A DNA stretch of 64,000 nt, from positions 1 through 64,000 of the forward strand of contig CAVWCX010000030.1 in assembly GCA_963753595.1 (NCBI GenBank), given 5' to 3'. A program made the translations under genes and the position numbers. The notes below the pieces were generated by a model. That model was given only the letters and a program-made list of their open reading frames with translations, was not told the DNA's origin and made no database searches. Position 1 is the stretch's first letter. Each line of letters starts with the position of its first letter. The stretch comes from Candidatus Methanoperedenaceae archaeon. GTDB taxonomy: Archaea > Halobacteriota > Methanosarcinia > Methanosarcinales > Methanoperedenaceae. Shown here in pieces: positions 1 through 61,662 of this stretch.

Positions 1-1146
1 AAGGCTTTTCTTCTCTTTGAAAAGCGGTTTGATCTTCATCCCAAACAGGAATCGCAGGATTTTTACTCGTTTGATCAAAAGATCATACAGGGCAATGATC
101 AACGCAAATGATACCGTACTTAATATGAGGTATTTCATAATAACACCCATGTCCCAGCTGGCGATATAAAATCCAATTATGACGATTATTGTTTGATGCA
201 ATATATAGAATGGCAAAACAGCCTCATTCGAATATTTCAGTAAGCTGTTGTTGAAATTAAGGTATTTGCTCCCAAAGCCAAGTATTGCGATGAGCCAGAA
301 CCATGAATTGAATGCACGCAGGAACGAAAAAAAGTATGCACGGGAAGAGTAACCTGCTTCAAGCAGGAAAAATCCGGATATGAATGTAAGTACACCCAAC
401 AGCAGCGCGATCTTCCTGTGCCTCTCAATGCTCACTCTGAATTGCATATTTGATGCGACCAGGTAGCCCAGGATAAAGAAGATCAGATATGTCAATAGAC
501 TCCAGCCGCCAAAATCTCTTCTTCCAATGCCATCCGGCTGTTGATTGACGAACAGCTCCATGAAAAAGACGGGAAGAGCAAGCAAAAATATGATTCCCGG
601 TTTTTCAAAAGAAATAGCCATCCTGAAGATGAAATTTTGTGTTTTCTCTTTTTTAAGGTAGCGAAAGATTGGTAGTGTAAGCAATGAGAAGATGAAAAGA
701 ATTTCCAGATACCACAGGTGCAGCCCCATCCAGGCAAAATTCCCGCCAAAGCCGTATAGACCTTCAAAGTAATGAGGAAAAAACCGGACAAACGAACCGG
801 CGAATTGAGAATGGCTTACACGCTCAATGTAAACCTGTGGCGGCACGAGTACGAATATACCAAATAACAGTGGTATCACAAGTCGGTTGAACCTTTCATT
901 AATAAACGATCGGTTGTTCCTGAAATCCAGGGCATAGTATACGCTTATAGCAGAAAGTATGAAGAAAAGAGGCATGATCCACTGAGCCACAATTTCAACA
1001 AATACGCTCATGCCAAAATCCAGCTGGTTGTTCTTTACATGCCAGTCTTCGTAATTGAAAAATCTTGCATTATGAAACAGAAAAATCATCAGCATTGCAA
1101 GTACTCTTAACCAATCAATATCGTAGCGCCTTTCATTATTGCCCAT
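1..1146 (-). CDS. Acyltransferase-3 family membrane protein (OpgC/MdoC-like), 3' end runs off window
   Basis: Not in ORF track. My translation from ATG 1146: MGNNERRYDIDWLRVLAMLMIFLFH...WIMPLFFILS...HLWYL...VLPFYILHQ, open to base 1; motifs typical of acyltransferase 3. Confidence 0.85.
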   Translation of the reverse strand, partial: MGNNERRYDIDWLRVLAMLMIFLFHNARFFNYEDWHVKNNQLDFGMSVFVEIVAQWIMPLFFILSAISVYYALDFRNNRSFINERFNRLVIPLLFGIFVLVPPQVYIERVSHSQFAGSFVRFFPHYFEGLYGFGGNFAWMGLHLWYLEILFIFSLLTLPIFRYLKKEKTQNFIFRMAISFEKPGIIFLLALPVFFMELFVNQQPDGIGRRDFGGWSLLTYLIFFILGYLVASNMQFRVSIERHRKIALLLGVLTFISGFFLLEAGYSSRAYFFSFLRAFNSWFWLIAILGFGSKYLNFNNSLLKYSNEAVLPFYILHQTIIVIIGFYIASWDMGVIMKYLILSTVSFALIIALYDLLIKRVKILRFLFGMKIKPLFKEKKSL

Positions 1147-1424
1147 TTCCGGATTCCTACCTGTAATAATAGAACCTAACGGCATGCTCATCAGCCACTG
1201 CCAAGCGTATATGTAAGCAGATTTACTCTATTCATATTTGAAGCTGTTTATCGCTTCACCTTTTCACGTTTTCAGGTCATATTCTTCATTTAATAACCTC
1301 AATTAAATTAACTGCCATTATTTGTATTAACACTTAACCTTAACACGCTGCCTGAGGCTATCTGAGTTACATATATTTAATCGGAAAGTCAAGTGTTAAG
1401 TGAATGTATGAAAGTGGAAGGTAA

Positions 1425-2693
1425 ATGGCGAGAGGATTAAAAAGAACGCTTGGATTATTCGATGCTTCTGCAATAGGTATCGGGGCTATTATCGGGTCAG
1501 GTATTTTTGTGGTAACCGGGATCGCAGCAGGTCTTGCAGGTCCGGCCCTATTGATATCTTTAATTATCGGCGCCTTCATTTCAGGATTTACGGCCCTGAG
1601 TTTTGCTGAACTTGCGCATTCGATGCCTGAGGAAGGAGGCGGTTATAAATTTGCCCATGAACTCGTCTCACCTTTTGCAGGTTTCATTTCCGGCTGGCTC
1701 TGGATTTTATCCAACATAGTGTCCGGTGTGGTAGTGAGCCTCGGATTTGCGAGCTACCTTTCATTAATGTTACCTTTTCCCGTGAATGTGAATCTGTTAG
1801 CAGCCCTGGCATGCCTTGGTGTTACTTTCATAAATTATCTCGGGGCCCGCGAATCAAGTCTCCTCAATGATATCCTGGTGATCATCAAACTCCTCATTCT
1901 GGCTCTTTTTGTCGTGTTCGGCATTACTTTCGTAAAGTCAGGCAATTTTTCGCCATTTATCCCCAACGGAGGGATCGGCATCATGCAGGGGGCTACTCTC
2001 ATATTCTTTGCGTATTCGGGGTTTGCAAGGGTCACCCTCATCAGTGAGGAAGTGAAGGATCCTGAAAAAAATATCCCTCGTGCTATTATTCTTGCATTGG
2101 GCATCTCAACAGTTGTTTACATGCTTGTAAGTTTCACTGCGATAGGGCTTGTGGGATATAAAGAACTGGCATCATCAGGTTCACCTCTTGCTGATGCCTC
2201 TCAATCTCTGGGTAAAAACCTGACTTATTTTGTGTCCATTGGCGCCCTTGTTGCAACTTTGAGCGTCCTTCTCACAACACTCCTGGGATTGTCCCGCATT
2301 TCTTATGCAATGTCAAGGGATCATGACCTTCCGCAGTTCTTTACAAGGCTGGATGATCGTTCTACTCCTTACTATACCGTTTTGATCTTTGGCTTTACAA
2401 TGACAATCCTGGCAGTATTCTCAAACCTGATCCAGGCTATTGCATTAGCCAACTTCGGTTCACTGCTTTATTATCTTATTGCCAATATTGCCGCTTTGAA
2501 ACTTGAAAAAAGAGTATATCCCCGCATAATTCCCATGCTTGGAATAATCAGCTGTATGATCTTGTTGGTTTTTCTTACTCAGGATGCCTGGATAAAAGGG
2601 ATTATCATTCTTTTTGCGGGAGCTGCATATTATTATCTTATGAAAAGGCGGCAAGAAAATAAAGATAATGATCGGGAATTTCATGAACTTTGA
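1425..2693 (+). CDS. APC-family amino acid permease
   Basis: GAIIGSGIF, FFAYSGF..EEVKDP motifs, ~12 TM segments. Confidence 0.92.
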   Translation: MARGLKRTLGLFDASAIGIGAIIGSGIFVVTGIAAGLAGPALLISLIIGAFISGFTALSFAELAHSMPEEGGGYKFAHELVSPFAGFISGWLWILSNIVSGVVVSLGFASYLSLMLPFPVNVNLLAALACLGVTFINYLGARESSLLNDILVIIKLLILALFVVFGITFVKSGNFSPFIPNGGIGIMQGATLIFFAYSGFARVTLISEEVKDPEKNIPRAIILALGISTVVYMLVSFTAIGLVGYKELASSGSPLADASQSLGKNLTYFVSIGALVATLSVLLTTLLGLSRISYAMSRDHDLPQFFTRLDDRSTPYYTVLIFGFTMTILAVFSNLIQAIALANFGSLLYYLIANIAALKLEKRVYPRIIPMLGIISCMILLVFLTQDAWIKGIIILFAGAAYYYLMKRRQENKDNDREFHEL

Positions 2694-2701
2694 TCACATA
2701 G

Positions 2702-3497
2702 CTATTCGCTAACAGGAACTATCCTGTCTTTTAGTTTAGTCTCTAAATCCTGGTTCATCGTTTCAATGACATTGATAACAATGCTTTCGATTTCCGTTTT
2801 TCAGTATTTCGTCATCTTTGAAAAAATCATTGTCAGTTTTTGCATTATATTGTAATCCATGGGTCCTGTATGCAAAACCAAATGGCGCAAGAATAAAACC
2901 CATTTGCTGGAAATAAAGAAAAATATCCATTGCCGTTTTAATTCCTCCATCTTCATGCCCATTGACTAAGATCCCGACAACTTTTCCGGTGGTCAAACCT
3001 TCTTTTTTCAATAAGTAAAGATTTTGAAGGCATGTCAGCCTGTCCAGGAAATCCTTTAATCGCGCTGACATATTATTCCAATTTATGGGAGAAGCGACAA
3101 TCACTGCCCTGGAATTAACTAACATTTCGTGGAGTGCAGGCGCATCATCAAGCTGGTTCCTGCACGGGTAAGTACATGCTGAATCCCTCATACTGTAGCA
3201 GCACCAGCAGTGCTGGATATCCAGCTCGTTCAAATTAAACCGCCTGAAACTAACGCCTTTTCTTTTGAGGGCTTTTTCCGCAGTATCTAATAAAGAGCTG
3301 GTATTGTGACCTCTGTGAGAACTCCCATTGATCAATAATACGTCAAATTTTTCTCCATCGAACTTAAGTTTTTGTTTATCCTTAAGTTCCGAATATTCCT
3401 TGGAAGAACTGCTGCATTGCGGGCATTCTTCAGGAGGTTCAGTTCCCCTGTGAATATAACCGCATACGCTGCATTTCCATTCTCTACTTTTTTGCAA
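2702..3497 (-). CDS. Rubredoxin-like domain fused to flavodoxin/iron-sulfur flavoprotein (NAD(P)H-dependent FMN reductase family); apparent 1-nt frameshift near 2797-2801
   Basis: WKCSVCGY..PPEECPQC then INGSSHRGHNT, CWCC..CTYPC, ASPINW. Likely TTG start 3497 after AAGGAG. Removing one base of the T5 run restores a plausible C-terminus ending TAG at 2702. Confidence 0.8.
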
Positions 3498-11483: not shown

Positions 11484-11604
11484 CATCAAGCCCATAAAAA
11501 TGGGCACCATTATGAATATTAAAAAAACAACGAACAAAAACGAACTGAAACGAACTCCAATGGCGTGAGTGTCCTCTGTGCGCTCGGTGGTTTTTTCAAA
11601 CCAG
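11484..11604. repeat. AACGAAC 10-mer hairpin element, copy D (chimeric right arm)
   Basis: aaaaaaacaacgaacaaaaacgaactgaaacgaactcc ... ctctgtgcgctcggtggttttttcaaaccAG; shares arm and end with copies at 55.5k/58.8k/61.5k; left boundary tentative. Confidence 0.7.
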
Positions 11605-44540: not shown

Positions 44541-45212
44541 ATGGGTCAAAAACCATTGATAGTATTGAATTTTAAAACCTATGCCGAAAGCATGGGCGAG
44601 AAAGCGGTACTGATGGCGAAATACTGTGAAGAAGTCAGTATTGGGTCAGGCATCGAGATAATTGCCTGCCCGCAGACGCCTGATATTTTCAGGGTTGCAT
44701 GCGCGGTAAAAATACCAGTTTTCGCCCAGCATGTCGATAGCGTTAGCGCAGGAGGTTATACCGGTCACATAACTGCGGATTGCGTCCTGTCAGCAGGGGC
44801 AAAAGGAACACTTATCAACCATTCGGAGCGCCGTATCCTGTTATCTGAACTCGATTCAGCAATTCAATCCGCAAAAAAAGCAGGGTTGCTGACAATTGCC
44901 TGCACGAATAATATTGCAGTAACATCAGCAGCAGCAGCGCTTTCCCCTGATTTTGTCGCAATTGAGCCGCCTGAACTCATTGGTTCTGGCATTCCTGTTT
45001 CTAAAGCAAATCCTGAAATCGTTATCGGCTCGGTGAGCGCTGTGAAAAAAATAAACCCAAAAGTCAAAGTCCTTTGCGGTGCAGGGATTTCCACAGGAGA
45101 TGATGTGGCAGCGGCAATTGAACTGGGGACACAGGGAGTGCTTCTTGCATCAGGTGTTATCAAGGCAAAAGATCCAAAGGCAGCGCTTTTTGACCTGGTG
45201 ACGAAGATTTAA
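44541..45212 (+). CDS. tpiA: Triosephosphate isomerase (archaeal type)
   Basis: LNFKTY, NHSE, IEPPELIG, CGAGI, LLASGV. Confidence 0.96.
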   Translation: MGQKPLIVLNFKTYAESMGEKAVLMAKYCEEVSIGSGIEIIACPQTPDIFRVACAVKIPVFAQHVDSVSAGGYTGHITADCVLSAGAKGTLINHSERRILLSELDSAIQSAKKAGLLTIACTNNIAVTSAAAALSPDFVAIEPPELIGSGIPVSKANPEIVIGSVSAVKKINPKVKVLCGAGISTGDDVAAAIELGTQGVLLASGVIKAKDPKAALFDLVTKI

Positions 45213-45251
45213 TGCAACGTTTATAGCATTACAAGTTGTTTTGATTTCTGA

Positions 45252-46859
45252 ATGACTTCCATCGAATTAGCAGCCAGGGATATTATAGAACAACTCCTTC
45301 GAAATGAGATCCCTGATGAAAAAGCCCTGAACGCAGCAAAAAAATCCGCAAGCATTCGATATAAGCTTTCATCCCTTCCTGGTAATTCCCAGATCCTTGC
45401 CGCTGCACGTAACATTGGGGAGAAACAATTCGTCCTTGAGCATCTCCAGTTAAAACCCGTTAGAACGATCTCAGGAGTCGCTGTGATAGCAGCCATGACA
45501 TCCCCTGCGCCTTGCCCTCATGGTCTTTGCATCCCATGCCCTGGTGGCGCTGATTCCAAATTCCACTCACCACAGAGCTATATGGGAGCTGAACCCGCCG
45601 CCAAAAGGGCTTTTGAGAATAATTTTGATCCCTATTTGCAGGTCTCATCGCGCCTGAAACAACTTTCACAAATAGGCCACCCGATCGAGAAGGCAGAACT
45701 TATCATAATGGGTGGAACATATACGTCGCGTACATTGTGCTACCAGGAATGGTTCGTTAAACGTTGTATCGAGGCCATGAATGATTTTTATGGAACAGAA
45801 TGGCGAACAGAAAGGGATTATGTTTCAGTGGAAGAAGTCCAATCTGCAAACGAGAGCGCCCAGGTAAGAAATGTAGGGATAACCATTGAGACAAGACCCG
45901 ACTGGACAAAAAAAGAGCATATTGATACCATTCTTGAACTTGGTGCGACAAAAGTGGAGATAGGTGTCCAGAACACGTATGATTTTATCCTCTCGGGCAT
46001 CCAGCGCGGCCATACGGTCGCCGCCAGCGCGGATGCCAATATGAGACTCAGGGACAGCGGATTAAAAGTTGGATTCCATATGATGCCAGGGCTTCCAGGC
46101 TCAACAGTGGATTCTGATCTTCGTGTGTTCCACAGATTATTCGAGGATGAGCGCTTCATGCCGGATTATCTCAAAATATACCCGACACTTGTCACTGAAG
46201 GAACACGGCTTCACGGGATGTGGGAAATTGGAAATTATGCGCCTCTTGAAGTGCTTGAAGCTGTCGGGTTGCTTGCAAATATAAAAGCCCTGCTGCCCAG
46301 ATGGGTACGCCTTCAAAGGATCCAGCGCGATATTCCAGCCTACCAGGTGCTTGCGGGAATAAAGAAAAGCAATATCAGGCAGCTTGCACAAGAGCGGTTG
46401 AAGGAAATGGAAGGGAAATGCAGGTGCATAAGGTGCCGTGAGGTCGGGCATAAGGAACTTTCAGGAATAAAACCGGGGAATATTGAACTGACAAGCGAAA
46501 AATACAGGGCTTGCGGTGGTCTGGAACACTTCATTTCATTCGAAGATGCAACAATGGATGTATTGGTCGGCTTCCTGAGGCTGCGCTTCCCGGCATCGCC
46601 CCATAGGGCAGAACTTAAAGGCGCAGCGCTTATCCGTGAACTTCATGTCTATGGCTCGATGGTAGCTCCGGGTGAGGACGCAGGTGAATCACAGTGGCAG
46701 CACAAAGGCTATGGTGAAGAGCTCCTGGCCCATGCAGAAGAAACCGCAAGAACTTGCGGATATGAGAAAATTGCGGTAACAAGCGGCATGGGTGTAAGGG
46801 ATTATTACAGGAAATTCGGGTACGAGCGAGAAGGACCATACATGACGAAAAGATTGTGA
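45252..46859 (+). CDS. elp3: Elp3 radical SAM/KAT tRNA U34 carboxymethyltransferase
   Basis: CPHGLCIPCPG, ETRPD, KIYPT, RELHVYG, QHKGYG. Confidence 0.95.
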   Translation: MTSIELAARDIIEQLLRNEIPDEKALNAAKKSASIRYKLSSLPGNSQILAAARNIGEKQFVLEHLQLKPVRTISGVAVIAAMTSPAPCPHGLCIPCPGGADSKFHSPQSYMGAEPAAKRAFENNFDPYLQVSSRLKQLSQIGHPIEKAELIIMGGTYTSRTLCYQEWFVKRCIEAMNDFYGTEWRTERDYVSVEEVQSANESAQVRNVGITIETRPDWTKKEHIDTILELGATKVEIGVQNTYDFILSGIQRGHTVAASADANMRLRDSGLKVGFHMMPGLPGSTVDSDLRVFHRLFEDERFMPDYLKIYPTLVTEGTRLHGMWEIGNYAPLEVLEAVGLLANIKALLPRWVRLQRIQRDIPAYQVLAGIKKSNIRQLAQERLKEMEGKCRCIRCREVGHKELSGIKPGNIELTSEKYRACGGLEHFISFEDATMDVLVGFLRLRFPASPHRAELKGAALIRELHVYGSMVAPGEDAGESQWQHKGYGEELLAHAEETARTCGYEKIAVTSGMGVRDYYRKFGYEREGPYMTKRL

Positions 46860-55471: not shown

Positions 55472-55597
55472 ACCGCAAAGTCAAATATAAATCCCTGGTT
55501 CATAAATGACATGAAAAAAGCAACGAACTGGAACGAACTCCGGTTGCGTTGGTTCGTATGGAGTTCAATGTTAATTTTTTCATACCAGAGCACAAAG
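55472..55597. mobile_element. AACGAAC hairpin MITE-like element copy B (55481-55586) inside an accgcaaag 9-mer array
   Basis: accgcaaAG|tcaaat...ttttttcatacc|AG agcacaaag; reverse-complement homologue of 58836-58970. Confidence 0.75.
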
Positions 55598-58078: not shown

Positions 58079-58747
58079 ATGGCAACGCTTGATCCTACCT
58101 ACTGGGGCTTTTTCGTATTCGGCATTCTTGCGGGCCTTTGCCCCTGCAATACCGTGCTTTGTCTGGCGCTCATAGGCTCGGTGGCAGGCGATGGTGCGGT
58201 TCGATACCCATTTCGGGATTCACTAAGGCTGACCCTGCCGTTTGGCATAGGCACGCTGCTCATTCTTACTCCTCTTGGAGGCATCGTTGCGTACATTGGG
58301 AAAAGCGTAGTACTGTTCAATGCATCTATAGCGTATGCATCCGGTGGTGCCGTGATGCTAATAATGGCACTCCAGCTTTTTGGCGTTTATCATTTGCCTG
58401 TTCGGGATATTTTTATGCGTTTACGTCTGCCGGCATCATTCACTCCTATGGGAACATTCCTGCTTGGCGTTTCATTCGGGGCTATTACCATTGGGAGAGT
58501 GGCTCCAATGCTCTTTTCCGTGCTTGCAGTTGCAGCATTATCAGGTTCGGTTGTATATGGCGTTACTGTATCGTTCCTTTTCGGGATAGGCATGATGCTG
58601 CCCCTTGTAATCATAAGTTCCATCGGTGGTGCAACAGGTAAAACCGTTCGTGGAAAGCTTAAAGATGGAGGCATATTGCTTGATCGTATCCTTGGTATAA
58701 TTATGGTTTTTGCAGCAGGATATTTCTTCTATATGGCAATGAAATAA
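58079..58747 (+). CDS. CcdA/DsbD-like transmembrane protein
   Basis: GILAGLCPC in TM1, 6 TM, FGIG..LP. Confidence 0.75.
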   Translation: MATLDPTYWGFFVFGILAGLCPCNTVLCLALIGSVAGDGAVRYPFRDSLRLTLPFGIGTLLILTPLGGIVAYIGKSVVLFNASIAYASGGAVMLIMALQLFGVYHLPVRDIFMRLRLPASFTPMGTFLLGVSFGAITIGRVAPMLFSVLAVAALSGSVVYGVTVSFLFGIGMMLPLVIISSIGGATGKTVRGKLKDGGILLDRILGIIMVFAAGYFFYMAMK

Positions 58748-58773
58748 CAATTTATATATATATATATTTAAAC

Positions 58774-58980
58774 ACCGCAAAGGGCGAAAAGTACGCAAGG
58801 AACGATTTTCCTAACCTTTGCGCCCCTTGCGTTCTGGTATGAAAAAACAACGAACTAATACGAACTGAAACGAACTCAAGCTACCAGAGTTCGTTCGTGT
58901 TCGTTTATGTTCGTTTATGTTCGTTGTTTTTTTTCATTTTTATTTATGAATCGGGAGGATTCATGGCCGACTTTGCGGTG
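58774..58980. repeat. 9-mer periodic palindrome (accgcaaag-type x3 / ctttgcggt-type x3) interrupted by AACGAAC element
   Basis: Left arm 58774-58800; right arm 58816-58835 plus 58971-58979. Confidence 0.8.
58836..58970. mobile_element. AACGAAC hairpin MITE-like element copy A
   Basis: CT|ggtatgaaaaaac(aacgaac 10-mer)x3...(gttcgtt)x4 gttttttttcat, then small hairpin atgaatc/gattcat, ccga|CT. Confidence 0.8.
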
Positions 58981-59023
58981 AGTCCTTGAATAAGAAGCTA
59001 CCTGGTAATTCAAGTTCAATGAG

Positions 59024-59710
59024 TTATGGGCTCTTGCCAGCTTGATTCGTGATCCGGTTCCTATCGACCCAAAAAGCAATAACAACAAGCCCGATCTGGC
59101 CTGCTGTCATAGTGAGGGCGACAGAAATCATGTCCGGTGGAGGGGGGCTGAAGATATTGCCAATAAAAAGGACCATCAGGATCAATACCATAATGGCAAG
59201 CCCATATTTTCCCGGCGATGAAACACTATGGGTCACGCTCCTGTAAAGATAAATCCCTATAAACAAAAGTCCAATTTCTACGATCATTGTACCTGCAAGG
59301 CTGTTCCAGAGAGATAAACCAAGTATGGGAGAATTTTTTCCAGAGATCGTCATATCAGGTGTATGTGAGATTACATCCAGAATAAAATGCGAGAAGATCG
59401 CAATTGCGAGTATGAATGCCGGCCGCTTCCTTTGCGAGCGAACCCCTGTTGGCCAGAGCCAATATACCAGAAAACCGGCTGTTGCCCACACAAATGCACC
59501 CAATGCGCTGTGGCTCAGGGGATAATCGTAGAATTCAAATGGTGATACGACCGTGGCGCCGGGGACGATCTTTGCGTGCTCAATCCCGAAAAGCAAAAAG
59601 AGCCCAAACAGGATGTCAAGTATGATCGCACCGAAAAGCAGCAGACCAAGTGATAATCTTGGCTCCACCTTTTTGAGTGCAAGTCCGATGCCATAGTGAC
59701 CGATAAACAT
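59024..59710 (-). CDS. Membrane-bound metal-dependent hydrolase (YdjM-like)
   Basis: MFIGH, D, SHS, SHFILD..H. Confidence 0.75.
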   Translation of the reverse strand: MFIGHYGIGLALKKVEPRLSLGLLLFGAIILDILFGLFLLFGIEHAKIVPGATVVSPFEFYDYPLSHSALGAFVWATAGFLVYWLWPTGVRSQRKRPAFILAIAIFSHFILDVISHTPDMTISGKNSPILGLSLWNSLAGTMIVEIGLLFIGIYLYRSVTHSVSSPGKYGLAIMVLILMVLFIGNIFSPPPPDMISVALTMTAGQIGLVVIAFWVDRNRITNQAGKSP

Positions 59711-60855: not shown

Positions 60856-61409
60856 CGAATTGGAACGCGGATGACGCGGATTGCGCGGATGCCCGCGGAT
60901 CGAATTATCCTTATTCCAATAGAAGGAGATACAAAATGTTGTATTCAGAAATGACAGAAAAAATCATCAATTCGTTTTACAAAGTTTATAATGTATTGGG
61001 CTATGGCTTTCTGGAAAAAGTTTATGAAAATGCCCTGGTAATTGAATTAAAAAGTGCGGGTTTCAAGGTCTTACAGCAGCAAAATATCAAAGTTTTCTAT
61101 AAAAATCAGGTAGTTGGAGATTATTTCGCAGATATTATTGTGAATGACCTGATAATTTTAGAAATAAAAGCGTCTGAGGGTTTAAGGGATGAAAATAAGG
61201 CTCAGTTGATCAATTATCTAAAAGCTACCAATAAAACAAGTCGGGCTTTTGTTTAATTTTGGTAAAAAACCAGATTTCAATAGAGCAATCTTCTCGAATG
61301 ATAGAAAGGAAATATCATATACAGAAGCCTCAAATCCGTGTGAATCCGCGCAATCCGCGTCATCCGCGTTCTATTCGTCTGGATGAATACTATTCTTTAA
61401 ATCCCGGAC
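60856..61409 (+). mobile_element. GxxExxY cassette bounded by periodic inverted repeats and 11-bp flanking direct repeat
   Basis: IRs 60855-60900 / 61334-61378 (28 bp perfect); aaccatgcaaa at 60845-60855 and 61410-61420. Confidence 0.7.
60936..61386 (+). CDS. GxxExxY protein (PD-(D/E)XK-like fold); 1-nt frameshift at A4 61233-61236
   Basis: AGGAG RBS; LGYGFLEKVYENAL, ADIIV..ILEIKA, AQLINYLKAT; shifted frame continues VGLLFNFGKKP. Confidence 0.88.
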
Positions 61410-61514
61410 AACCATGCAAATAACTCAACCCATCCTGCTGTAACAAACACCGATGCTGACTTCTGCGCAGTATTTTGACGGATATTCCAGCCTTTGTCTG
61501 GACAGGCAATTTCT

Positions 61515-61662
61515 AAACAACGAACTAAAACGAACTGCAACGAACTCAAAGCAATCAGAGTTCGTATTGAGTTCGTCGGAGTTCGGTGTTAATTTTTTTC
61601 ATACCAGCTCACGGAGGAAATAGAGCAACGTTGACTCTGTGATTTCTGAGGCATCTGTAGTT
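61515..61662. repeat. AACGAAC element copy C (61515-61605) abutting a cacagag-type 9-mer palindrome (61608-61662)
   Basis: aacaacgaactaaaacgaactgcaacgaactc...gagttcg x3...ttttttcataccAG ctcacggag gaaatagag...ctctgtgat ttctgaggc atctgtagtt. Confidence 0.75.

Follow-up and report, generated by a model that had tools for sequence, protein, structure and literature searches.

The locus and its host palindrome

Two convergent open reading frames (ORFs) for membrane proteins, located at 58079-58747 on the plus strand and at 59024-59710 on the minus strand of the window, enclose a composite of two palindromic elements. The window is the whole 64,000-nt stretch of DNA analyzed here and represents contig C30 of G000, a Candidatus Methanoperedens genome that comprises 2.89 Mb in 37 contigs and is 92% complete. 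The outer element is a host palindrome composed of 9-mers of the CGCAAAG type. The inner one, named T10 here, is a hairpin insert of 135 nt at 58836-58970 (Table 1). A preliminary description had placed this insert between the last two 9-mers of the host with a CT dinucleotide on either side, and the sequence agrees with this position. The further statement that the host palindrome is restored exactly upon removal of the insert was true for the period but not for the pairing of the arms. Deletion of 58836-58972 in silico brought back the exact 9-nt period with three units per arm. The resulting palindrome is nevertheless imperfect: unit 1 pairs perfectly with unit 6, while units 2 and 3 agree with units 4 and 5 at 8 of 9 bases each, in the non-mirror order 1-2-3..2'-3'-1'. 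This unit order is common to the whole host family.

TABLE 1 Positions of the parts of the composite palindrome and of the other T10 copies in the window
Position	Strand	Feature	Evidence or remark
58764-58772	.	Host-repeat flank ATATTTAAA	TTTAAAT side of the host family; alignment of the insert-less sequence to the empty C18 copy, flanks included
58773-58800	+	Host palindrome arm 1, CGCAAAG-type 9-mers CACCGCAAAG, GGCGAAAAG, TACGCAAGG	Sequence; inverted repeat I12/I13
58801-58815	.	Host palindrome loop, 15 nt	Homologous to the C18 and C2 host loops, reverse orientation
58816-58833	+	Host palindrome arm 2, units CTTTGCGCC and CCTTGCGTT	Sequence
58834-58835	.	CT, crossover dinucleotide copy 1 (AG in recombinase orientation)	Sequence; CT at 20/24 intact left junctions in G000
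58836-58851	-	T10 end corresponding to the IS110-family right end (reverse complement of ..GTTGTTTTTTCATACC)	Alignment A2, six full-length elements
58849-58925	.	Internal hairpin: three AACGAACnnn, 13-nt loop (58876-58888), four GTTCGTnnnn	Repeats and fold; absent from full-length IS
58926-58970	-	T10 end corresponding to the IS110-family left end, minus strand TCGGCCATGAA..TTCATAAAT..ATGAAAAAAAA	Alignment A1, five full-length elements
58971-58972	.	CT, crossover dinucleotide copy 2; also opening bases of the terminal 9-mer	CT at 21/21 intact right junctions in G000
58971-58980	+	Terminal host unit CTTTGCGGTG	Empty copy has CTTAGCGGTG; TCTGTGG.. instead when T10 is in a CACAGAG-type host
58981-58997	.	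Host-repeat flank AGTCCTTGAATAAGAAG	Reverse complement of the TTCAAGRACT side of the host family
55492-55588	-	T10 copy 2, degraded, beside CGCAAAG-type units	HMM positions 1-124
61514-61607	-	T10 copy 3: hairpin and CATACCAG end kept, left-end box missing	Profile match; end alignment
11492-11604	-	T10 copy 4: hairpin arm 2 replaced by CTCTGTG 9-mers	Profile match

Within T10, 10-mers of the AACGAAC type at 58849-58876 and of the GTTCGT type at 58889-58925 form a long hairpin, and the part that corresponds to the left end of an insertion sequence (IS; see below) includes a small hairpin at 58946-58964. Repeats and fold agree on this arrangement, which had been read from the letters before. Folded as single-stranded DNA, the insert reached -31.5 kcal/mol compared to -12.6 ± 2.6 kcal/mol for 200 shuffled sequences (z = -7.3; none as good), and the whole composite of 215 nt reached -51.6 kcal/mol compared to -24.6 ± 3.1 kcal/mol (z = -8.7) with a closing stem and three branches. 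A sequence of 135 nt is too short to encode a recombinase, and no ORF of such a family is present at the locus. No Rfam family was found in the window at gathering score.

The T10 repeat family

A genome-wide search for further copies yielded 89 nhmmer matches in G000, which were combined into 45 loci and identified T10 as a repeat family rather than a chance structure. In a first sample, matches to T10 were present in all 18 of 18 genomes of the same genus and hardly at all beyond it. An 18-nt stretch of the insert matched about 70 contigs assigned to Candidatus Methanoperedens or ANME-2d and a few unrelated bacteria.

The preliminary description had expected a CT or AG core at 9-mer boundaries, and this was found for most intact ends of the family. 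Of the intact ends in G000, 20 of 24 on the left and all 21 on the right carried the CT, and 9-mer flanks occurred on the left side in 18 of 24 copies (CTTTGCG or CTCTGTG type) and on the right side in 19 of 21 (TTTGCGG.. or TCTGTGG..). Similar numbers were obtained for 80 T10 loci of other genomes, with CT at 20/24 left and 20/22 right ends and 9-mer flanks at 15/24 left and 22/22 right ends. When both flanks could be assigned to a type, the host type was the same on both sides of T10 in 26 of 27 copies, the 27th being a tie. T10 resides almost exclusively at the junction of the first unit, although other junctions look equivalent.

Several loci deviate from this general picture. Copies of T10 cluster regionally, with three within 6 kb of window sequence and three within 9 kb on contig C34. 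The copy at 11492-11604 contains CTCTGTG-type 9-mers directly before an end similar to CATACCAG and is a chimera of two periodic hairpin families. A truncated T10 on contig C19 of G000 (74670-74816) is located directly beside the 3' end of a putative tRNA gene (ggttcgactccgg...). Downstream of the IS110 ORFs at loci L147 and L150, a T10-like left-end box (..TTTTTCAT..CAGTTCATAGCCGA/CTTTGCGGTG) follows 9-mers of the ATCCGTG type instead of GTTCGT 10-mers, possibly a variant miniature element whose cargo is a different hairpin family.

A full-length IS110-family element with the ends of T10

A search of the genus with the Pfam model DEDD_Tnp_IS110 resulted in matches in 27 of 49 genomes, which were sorted into three groups. 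T10-like ends were present in group 3 but not in groups 1 and 2. A longer copy with the ends of T10 around an IS110 ORF, as had been looked for on the basis of the preliminary description, exists in other Methanoperedens genomes and, in decayed form, in G000. The group 3 element was found in its full length of 1672-1675 bp at five loci (L158, L156, L154, L169, L165), which are 87-100% alike. The loci L152, L151, L172, L170, and L153 harbor related copies, and a second subgroup is about 73-75% alike. The other IS110 lineages were rejected as parents of T10, since the intact group 1 element on contig C18 of G000 and group 2 have the ends TCGTATATA.../...TAATAGTACGYT, which do not resemble those of T10.

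The group 3 element starts with TCGGCTATGAACTGCGGTTCATAAATGAACATGAAAAAA, ends with TTTTTCATACCAG, and is located between 9-mer units. In recombinase orientation, its layout is 9-mer/TCGGCTATGAACTGCGGTTCATAAATGAACATGAAAAAA ... ORF ... TTTTTCATACC AG/NN-9-mer. Its ends resemble those of T10 from the window and from four other genomes. The likeness extends over about 40 nt at the left end and about 16 nt at the right end and is followed by divergence on both sides. The first 39-42 nt of the element were 90-97% identical to eight other T10 copies from G000, and TTTTTCATACCAG was invariant or nearly so in alignment A2 of T10 with six full-length elements. The target of group 3 is the position after the AG of the first unit, once of the second, in an array of CACAGAG or CGCAAAG units, with an AG again at the right end. 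Junctions of the form ..CACAGAG/TCGGC...CATACCAG/NN-CACAGAG were read at seven loci, and the layout of T10 is the same. Thus, T10 and the full-length element share the target position, the orientation, and the dinucleotide at both junctions.

The ORF at 1477-2712 of locus L154 encodes 412 amino acids with the domains PF01548 (DEDD_Tnp_IS110, 86.1 bits) and PF02371 (Transposase_20, 84.1 bits). This product matched the chain 8wt6_A of the IS621 recombinase, albeit weakly (E = 5e-14, 55 bits) and in the C-terminal part only. The core of IS621 is CT. About 50 nt past the right end of the IS110 element at L154, positions 2964-3179 matched domains 1-4 of a group II intron (RF02005, 69.8 bits). A comparison of the loci of the parent element with Rfam produced no match to the RNA of the left end; only the nearby group II intron and a tRNA were found.

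A bridge-RNA-like guide in the left end

The left non-coding end of the group 3 element comprises about 237 nt before the start codon. An RNAalifold consensus of 11 left ends contained 38 base pairs, 6 of them with compensatory changes. Besides a long outer stem, the fold has an inner stem, GACCA/TGGTY, and an internal loop whose two variable segments are arranged around a small hairpin; its second region is more conserved. The 3' segment of this loop reads GT-NNNNNNN-TCTGG, in which NNNNNNN is a guide of 7 nt. The left junction was readable in 8 copies. In 7 of them, this guide was identical to the left flank, and in the eighth it agreed at 6 of 7 bases. Six group 3 copies, all of them following CACAGAG, possess the guide CACAGAG. 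The guide CGCAAAG, carried for example by L151 and L152, was present in a copy following CGTAAAG and in two others; one of these two is followed on its right side by CGCAAAG units. The copy at L172 (G048:C224, about 1100-2810, minus strand) resides in the 5' non-coding end of a group 2 IS110 element and thus inside another IS at a non-repeat target, and its guide CCACGAG is identical to its left flank CCACGAG.

The 5' segment of the loop is reverse complementary to the right flank, AG included, and it fits less cleanly than the left guide. At most one mismatch was found for L151, L152, and L172, the fit was offset by one base for L158 and L169, and it was poor for L154 and L165. In L172, this second guide is complementary to AGATTAC on the right flank. 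The second, conserved region of the fold contains ATACCAG, which is the right end plus AG. The RNA of the left end may be described as bridge-RNA-like, and its anatomy together with the bacterial precedent suggests that the element is guided by RNA. T10 does not contain the bridge-RNA region, because its likeness to the IS ends about 40 nt into the left end and the RNA fold of the IS starts at about nt 75.

Origin of T10

T10 is very probably a non-autonomous miniature derivative of an IS110 element that kept the end boxes only and was inserted in trans by a full-length copy with a CGCAAAG guide. As T10 possesses the donor ends while lacking a recombinase and a guide RNA, such a copy would have had to provide both. 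The preliminary description had proposed a non-autonomous element that targets palindromes, and the ends shared with IS110, the missing ORF, the independent insertions, and the empty sites described below speak for this proposal. T10 would have retained the left end of the parent over about 40 nt and its right end over about 16 nt, and the bridge-RNA region plus the recombinase gene between them would have been replaced by the hairpin of 10-nt repeats. The parent would provide a DEDD/serine recombinase and the bridge-RNA-like fold in its 5' non-coding end. In the first internal loop of this fold, the 7-nt guide would be identical to the 9-mer unit left of the insertion site, and the second guide in the same loop would be complementary to the unit on the right. 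Recombination would then occur between the AG (CT on the other strand) of a circularized form of the element, which is a presumed intermediate, and the AG at the end of the first 9-mer unit. This should place the element in one orientation between units one and two and leave AG/CT at both junctions.

Alternatively, each T10 may have originated by local internal deletion of a resident full-length IS110 element, so that T10 itself never moved. Ends and target position are indeed common to T10 and the IS, and an internally deleted IS exists at L170, which is devoid of positions 75-257. The 10-mer hairpin, on the other hand, is foreign to the IS and is nevertheless present in nearly all T10 copies across many species. 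When T10 hairpin and parent IS were compared for complementarity, the best result was a match of 9 nt (E = 0.39). Moreover, five inserts in G000, those of the window and of contigs C2, C5, C10, and C24, are essentially identical over their whole 125-135 nt: three share the same 125 nt, that of C24 has one mismatch, and that of the window has one extra 10-nt unit and no mismatch to this subfamily. Independent deletions would not yield the same foreign insert repeatedly, and local deletion is consequently a very improbable origin of T10.

Another possibility is that the 207-bp structure is a single composite repeat that was multiplied as a whole, with the "empty" palindromes being deletion derivatives. 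The same layout recurs many times, which would be expected in this case, and the hairpin can be deleted: at C1:45257 (45200-45280) of G000, a remnant of 11 nt, GGTATGGCCGA, is located between CT and CT in a CACAGAG palindrome. This remnant looks like the tips of T10 joined at a CAT microhomology after deletion of the whole hairpin. The surroundings of the five near-identical inserts do not agree with joint multiplication, however, since their hosts differ in unit number, loop, and flanks. The identity reaches as far as CTGG in one direction and through CTTTGCGGTG in the other, and the flanks diverge beyond. T10 also occurs in CGCAAAG- as well as CACAGAG-type hosts with flanks that agree on both sides. 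In the CACAGAG-type hosts, the unit following T10 is TCTGTGG.., so that the terminal unit belongs to the host. Targets without an insert are frequent: among the 42 exact CTTTGCGGTG sites of G000, 7 come after a ..GCCGA end and about 22 come immediately after another 9-mer.

Empty host palindromes were identified as paralogous sites within G000. The empty copy at C18:25715-25834 was alike in 101 of 125 columns to the filled copy on C2 in forward orientation, and the sole gap of this alignment was exactly the T10 insert, with CT/ACT common at the break. The likeness included 15-20 nt of non-palindromic flank, TTCAAGAACT on one side and TTTAAAT on the other. In contrast, the host palindrome of the window, after removal of the insert in silico, could be aligned to the empty C18 copy in reverse orientation only (96/126 columns). 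This indicates that T10 uses either of the symmetric arms of the host palindrome, the arm on the TTTAAAT side in C2 and that on the TTCAAGGACT side in the window. The same target sequence is available on both strands of the palindrome, and both are used by T10. Opposite arms of the same asymmetric host family would not be occupied if the composite had been multiplied as one unit, and the full-length IS occupies the same position as T10. These data show that insertions of T10 are independent as well as site- and orientation-specific, and they make a single composite repeat, a case the preliminary description had itself considered, extremely unlikely. A target duplication of 9 bp as the source of the 9-mers was also rejected because the unit number does not differ between filled and empty copies.

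That a different enzyme moved T10, either an HUH transposase of the IS200/IS605 type acting on the hairpins or a serine recombinase with a 2-bp crossover, the likeness to IS110 being secondary, is scarcely credible: a large and a small hairpin, the single orientation, the 2-nt identity at both junctions, and three Y1_Tnp fragments in G000 would be compatible with it, but the Y1 fragments are short or broken and not adjacent to 9-mer arrays or T10, no longer element with T10 ends and another ORF was found in G000 or at the 80 loci elsewhere, and the ends of T10 match the IS110 element on both sides. The HUH and GxxExxY proteins that had been named as candidate mobilizers are unsupported. The Y1/HUH transposases were rejected with these three fragments, and 9-mer arrays near them, as in the layout of REP/REPIN sequences and RAYT that was considered for the host palindrome, were not present in G000. 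The GxxExxY/PDDEXK_3 candidate was rejected, too; it was represented by three loci with four matches, two of which are halves of one broken gene, and these loci have nothing in common with the ends of T10. Two of the three are located between CGCGGAT-type arrays. Split T10 copies with a large insert were found neither in G000 nor at the 80 loci of other genomes.

Helper element and history of the locus

The very probable origin of T10 as an IS110 miniature mobilized in trans leads to the question of the helper. The sole group 3 copy in the G000 assembly (C3:56802-58259) is distributed over three frames; its left end is degraded, and its guide reads CCTATAG. No intact cognate group 3 recombinase was found in this assembly of 92% completeness and 37 contigs. 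Because the only assembled cognate copy is a pseudogene, the helper of the five-copy burst is not in the assembly and was therefore unassembled, extrachromosomal, or just lost. The near-identity of the five copies argues for a very recent activity of this T10 subfamily. The subfamily was found only in G000: its left-end variant, with up to 3 mismatches allowed, was present in none of the 48 other genomes of the genus and had no match in metagenome contigs. A pattern for the junction of a T10 circle or for a tandem copy had no match in the metagenome contigs searched.

At the orthologous locus of genome G008, the same two genes (82-90% identical) are 26 nt apart and contain neither palindrome nor T10 between them. 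A metagenome contig (X2 record 11) likewise joins both flanking genes, with about 42 nt in between. Since the whole composite is missing from both, it was either gained in the lineage of the window or lost in those of G008 and the contig. An allele of the window locus with the palindrome but without T10 was found neither in G008 nor in contigs from four public runs. In genome G009, a CGCAAAG palindrome that appears to be empty is located 125 nt after the first gene at the end of a contig. A single metagenome contig, X3, joins 58824 to 58971 with 85% likeness, which may be another empty palindrome of another organism. None of the public sequencing runs contained more than 0.10 of the sampled words.

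Relation to known elements

The closest counterpart of T10 and its parent is a pair from Pseudomonas putida. ISPpu9, an IS110-family element, inserts into REP sequences and carries an A box of 43 bp together with a B box of 16 bp (PMC12288879). It possesses AG at both ends, one copy being derived from the target, and its target specificity is attributed to a bridge RNA; minicircles and transposition were demonstrated experimentally (PMC12288879). Its partner MITEPpu9 resembles a transposable element of the miniature inverted-repeat kind (MITE) and has the boxes of ISPpu9 around the sRNA gene ssr9 (PMC12288879). T10 is likewise short and non-autonomous, its boxes of about 40 and 16 nt correspond to the 43 and 16 bp of ISPpu9, AG is present at both ends in recombinase orientation, and the targets are intergenic palindromes. 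T10 differs from MITEPpu9 in its archaeal host, in its target, which is an array of 9-nt units in a palindrome and not a REP sequence, and in its cargo, which is a hairpin of 10-nt repeats and not ssr9. In addition, T10 is known from its sequence alone.

The parent of T10 resembles IS621 and the IS110 bridge recombinases in general by both Pfam domains, by the match to the IS621 sequence, and by its use of repeated elements as targets. It differs from IS621 in so far as this match is weak and limited to the C-terminal part, and no Rfam family corresponds to its RNA. The bridge RNA of IS110 elements is described as encoded in a long left end, with a target loop that varies and a donor loop that is better conserved (PMC11208160). 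The left end of about 237 nt, the variable first loop, the conserved second region, and the guide matching the target are the corresponding features of the T10 parent.

Like the MITEs of Sulfolobus, T10 would be an archaeal non-autonomous derivative of an insertion sequence. The parents of the Sulfolobus MITEs, a subject of Redder and coworkers in 2001, are said to be DDE-type elements that have terminal inverted repeats and target duplications, and not IS110-family elements. A literature search retrieved no paper linking Methanoperedens with MITEs or with palindromes plus insertion sequences, and no archaeal IS110-derived MITE was mentioned among the titles and abstracts listed for IS110, MITEs, and archaea. 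To the extent of these titles and abstracts, the assumption that such an element had not been described in archaea can be maintained, while the bacterial precedent is in print with MITEPpu9/ISPpu9 (PMC12288879). T10 is therefore an archaeal representative of an element type known before from bacteria, and the mechanism is not new.

Periodic repeats and guide resetting in Methanoperedens

The host palindromes belong to a larger set of periodic sequences. In the output of TRF for G000, a period of 9 was the commonest with 380 of 1687 rows, many of which are AT-rich chance arrays. Paired inverted arrays were observed for the families CGCAAAG, CACAGAG, CGCGGAT/CACGGAT, and ACAGGAT and for the 10-mers ATCTGCG and ACGAAC. 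In the window, a PDDEXK_3/GxxExxY-type ORF (about 60933-61256, plus strand; region 60865-61369) is located between inverted arrays of CGCGGAT-type 9-mers at 60865-60900 and 61333-61369. A counterpart of this layout, in which the ORF is broken, was observed at C2:122570-122950 of G000. This arrangement looks like a gene cassette inside a periodic palindrome.

The sole intact IS110 element of G000 (C18:29750-31560, L001/L017) belongs to group 1, encodes 402 amino acids, and resides in arm 2 of a CACAGAG palindrome. Its relatives in six other Methanoperedens genomes occupied arrays of CACAGAG, of ATCCTGT, or of the 10-mer ATCTGCG, or were located outside arrays. The 5' non-coding region of group 1 has a loop (CAGAGAA, GGATTAA, or AGATGAA) that is complementary to the right junction. 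Judging from these loops, group 1 is a second IS110 lineage with re-set guides. At least two IS110 lineages of the genus would thus contain guide loops re-set to different repeat families.

It is conceivable, but rather doubtful, that the 9- and 10-nt periodic hairpins of Methanoperedens represent an undescribed REP-like superfamily that serves as a landing pad for diversifying RNA-guided recombinases, with T10 seeding nested pads. As the cargo of T10 is itself a periodic hairpin, each insertion may seed a potential landing pad inside an older one. If true, this would drive the nested growth of repeat clusters.

T10 would be a clear natural archaeal case in which a miniature element exploits a bridge-RNA-guided IS110 recombinase, and the parent element, the target family, the empty sites, and a very recent burst of five copies could all be recognized in the sequence. 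The parent elements appear to document natural re-setting of the guide to CACAGAG, to CGCAAAG, and once, inside another IS, to CCACGAG. Guide re-setting is what makes bridge recombinases attractive for genome editing, and the group 3 elements may be considered compact archaeal orthologues. For the organisms themselves, T10 would explain part of the dense intergenic repeats in Methanoperedens, which break the assemblies of these uncultured methane oxidizers.
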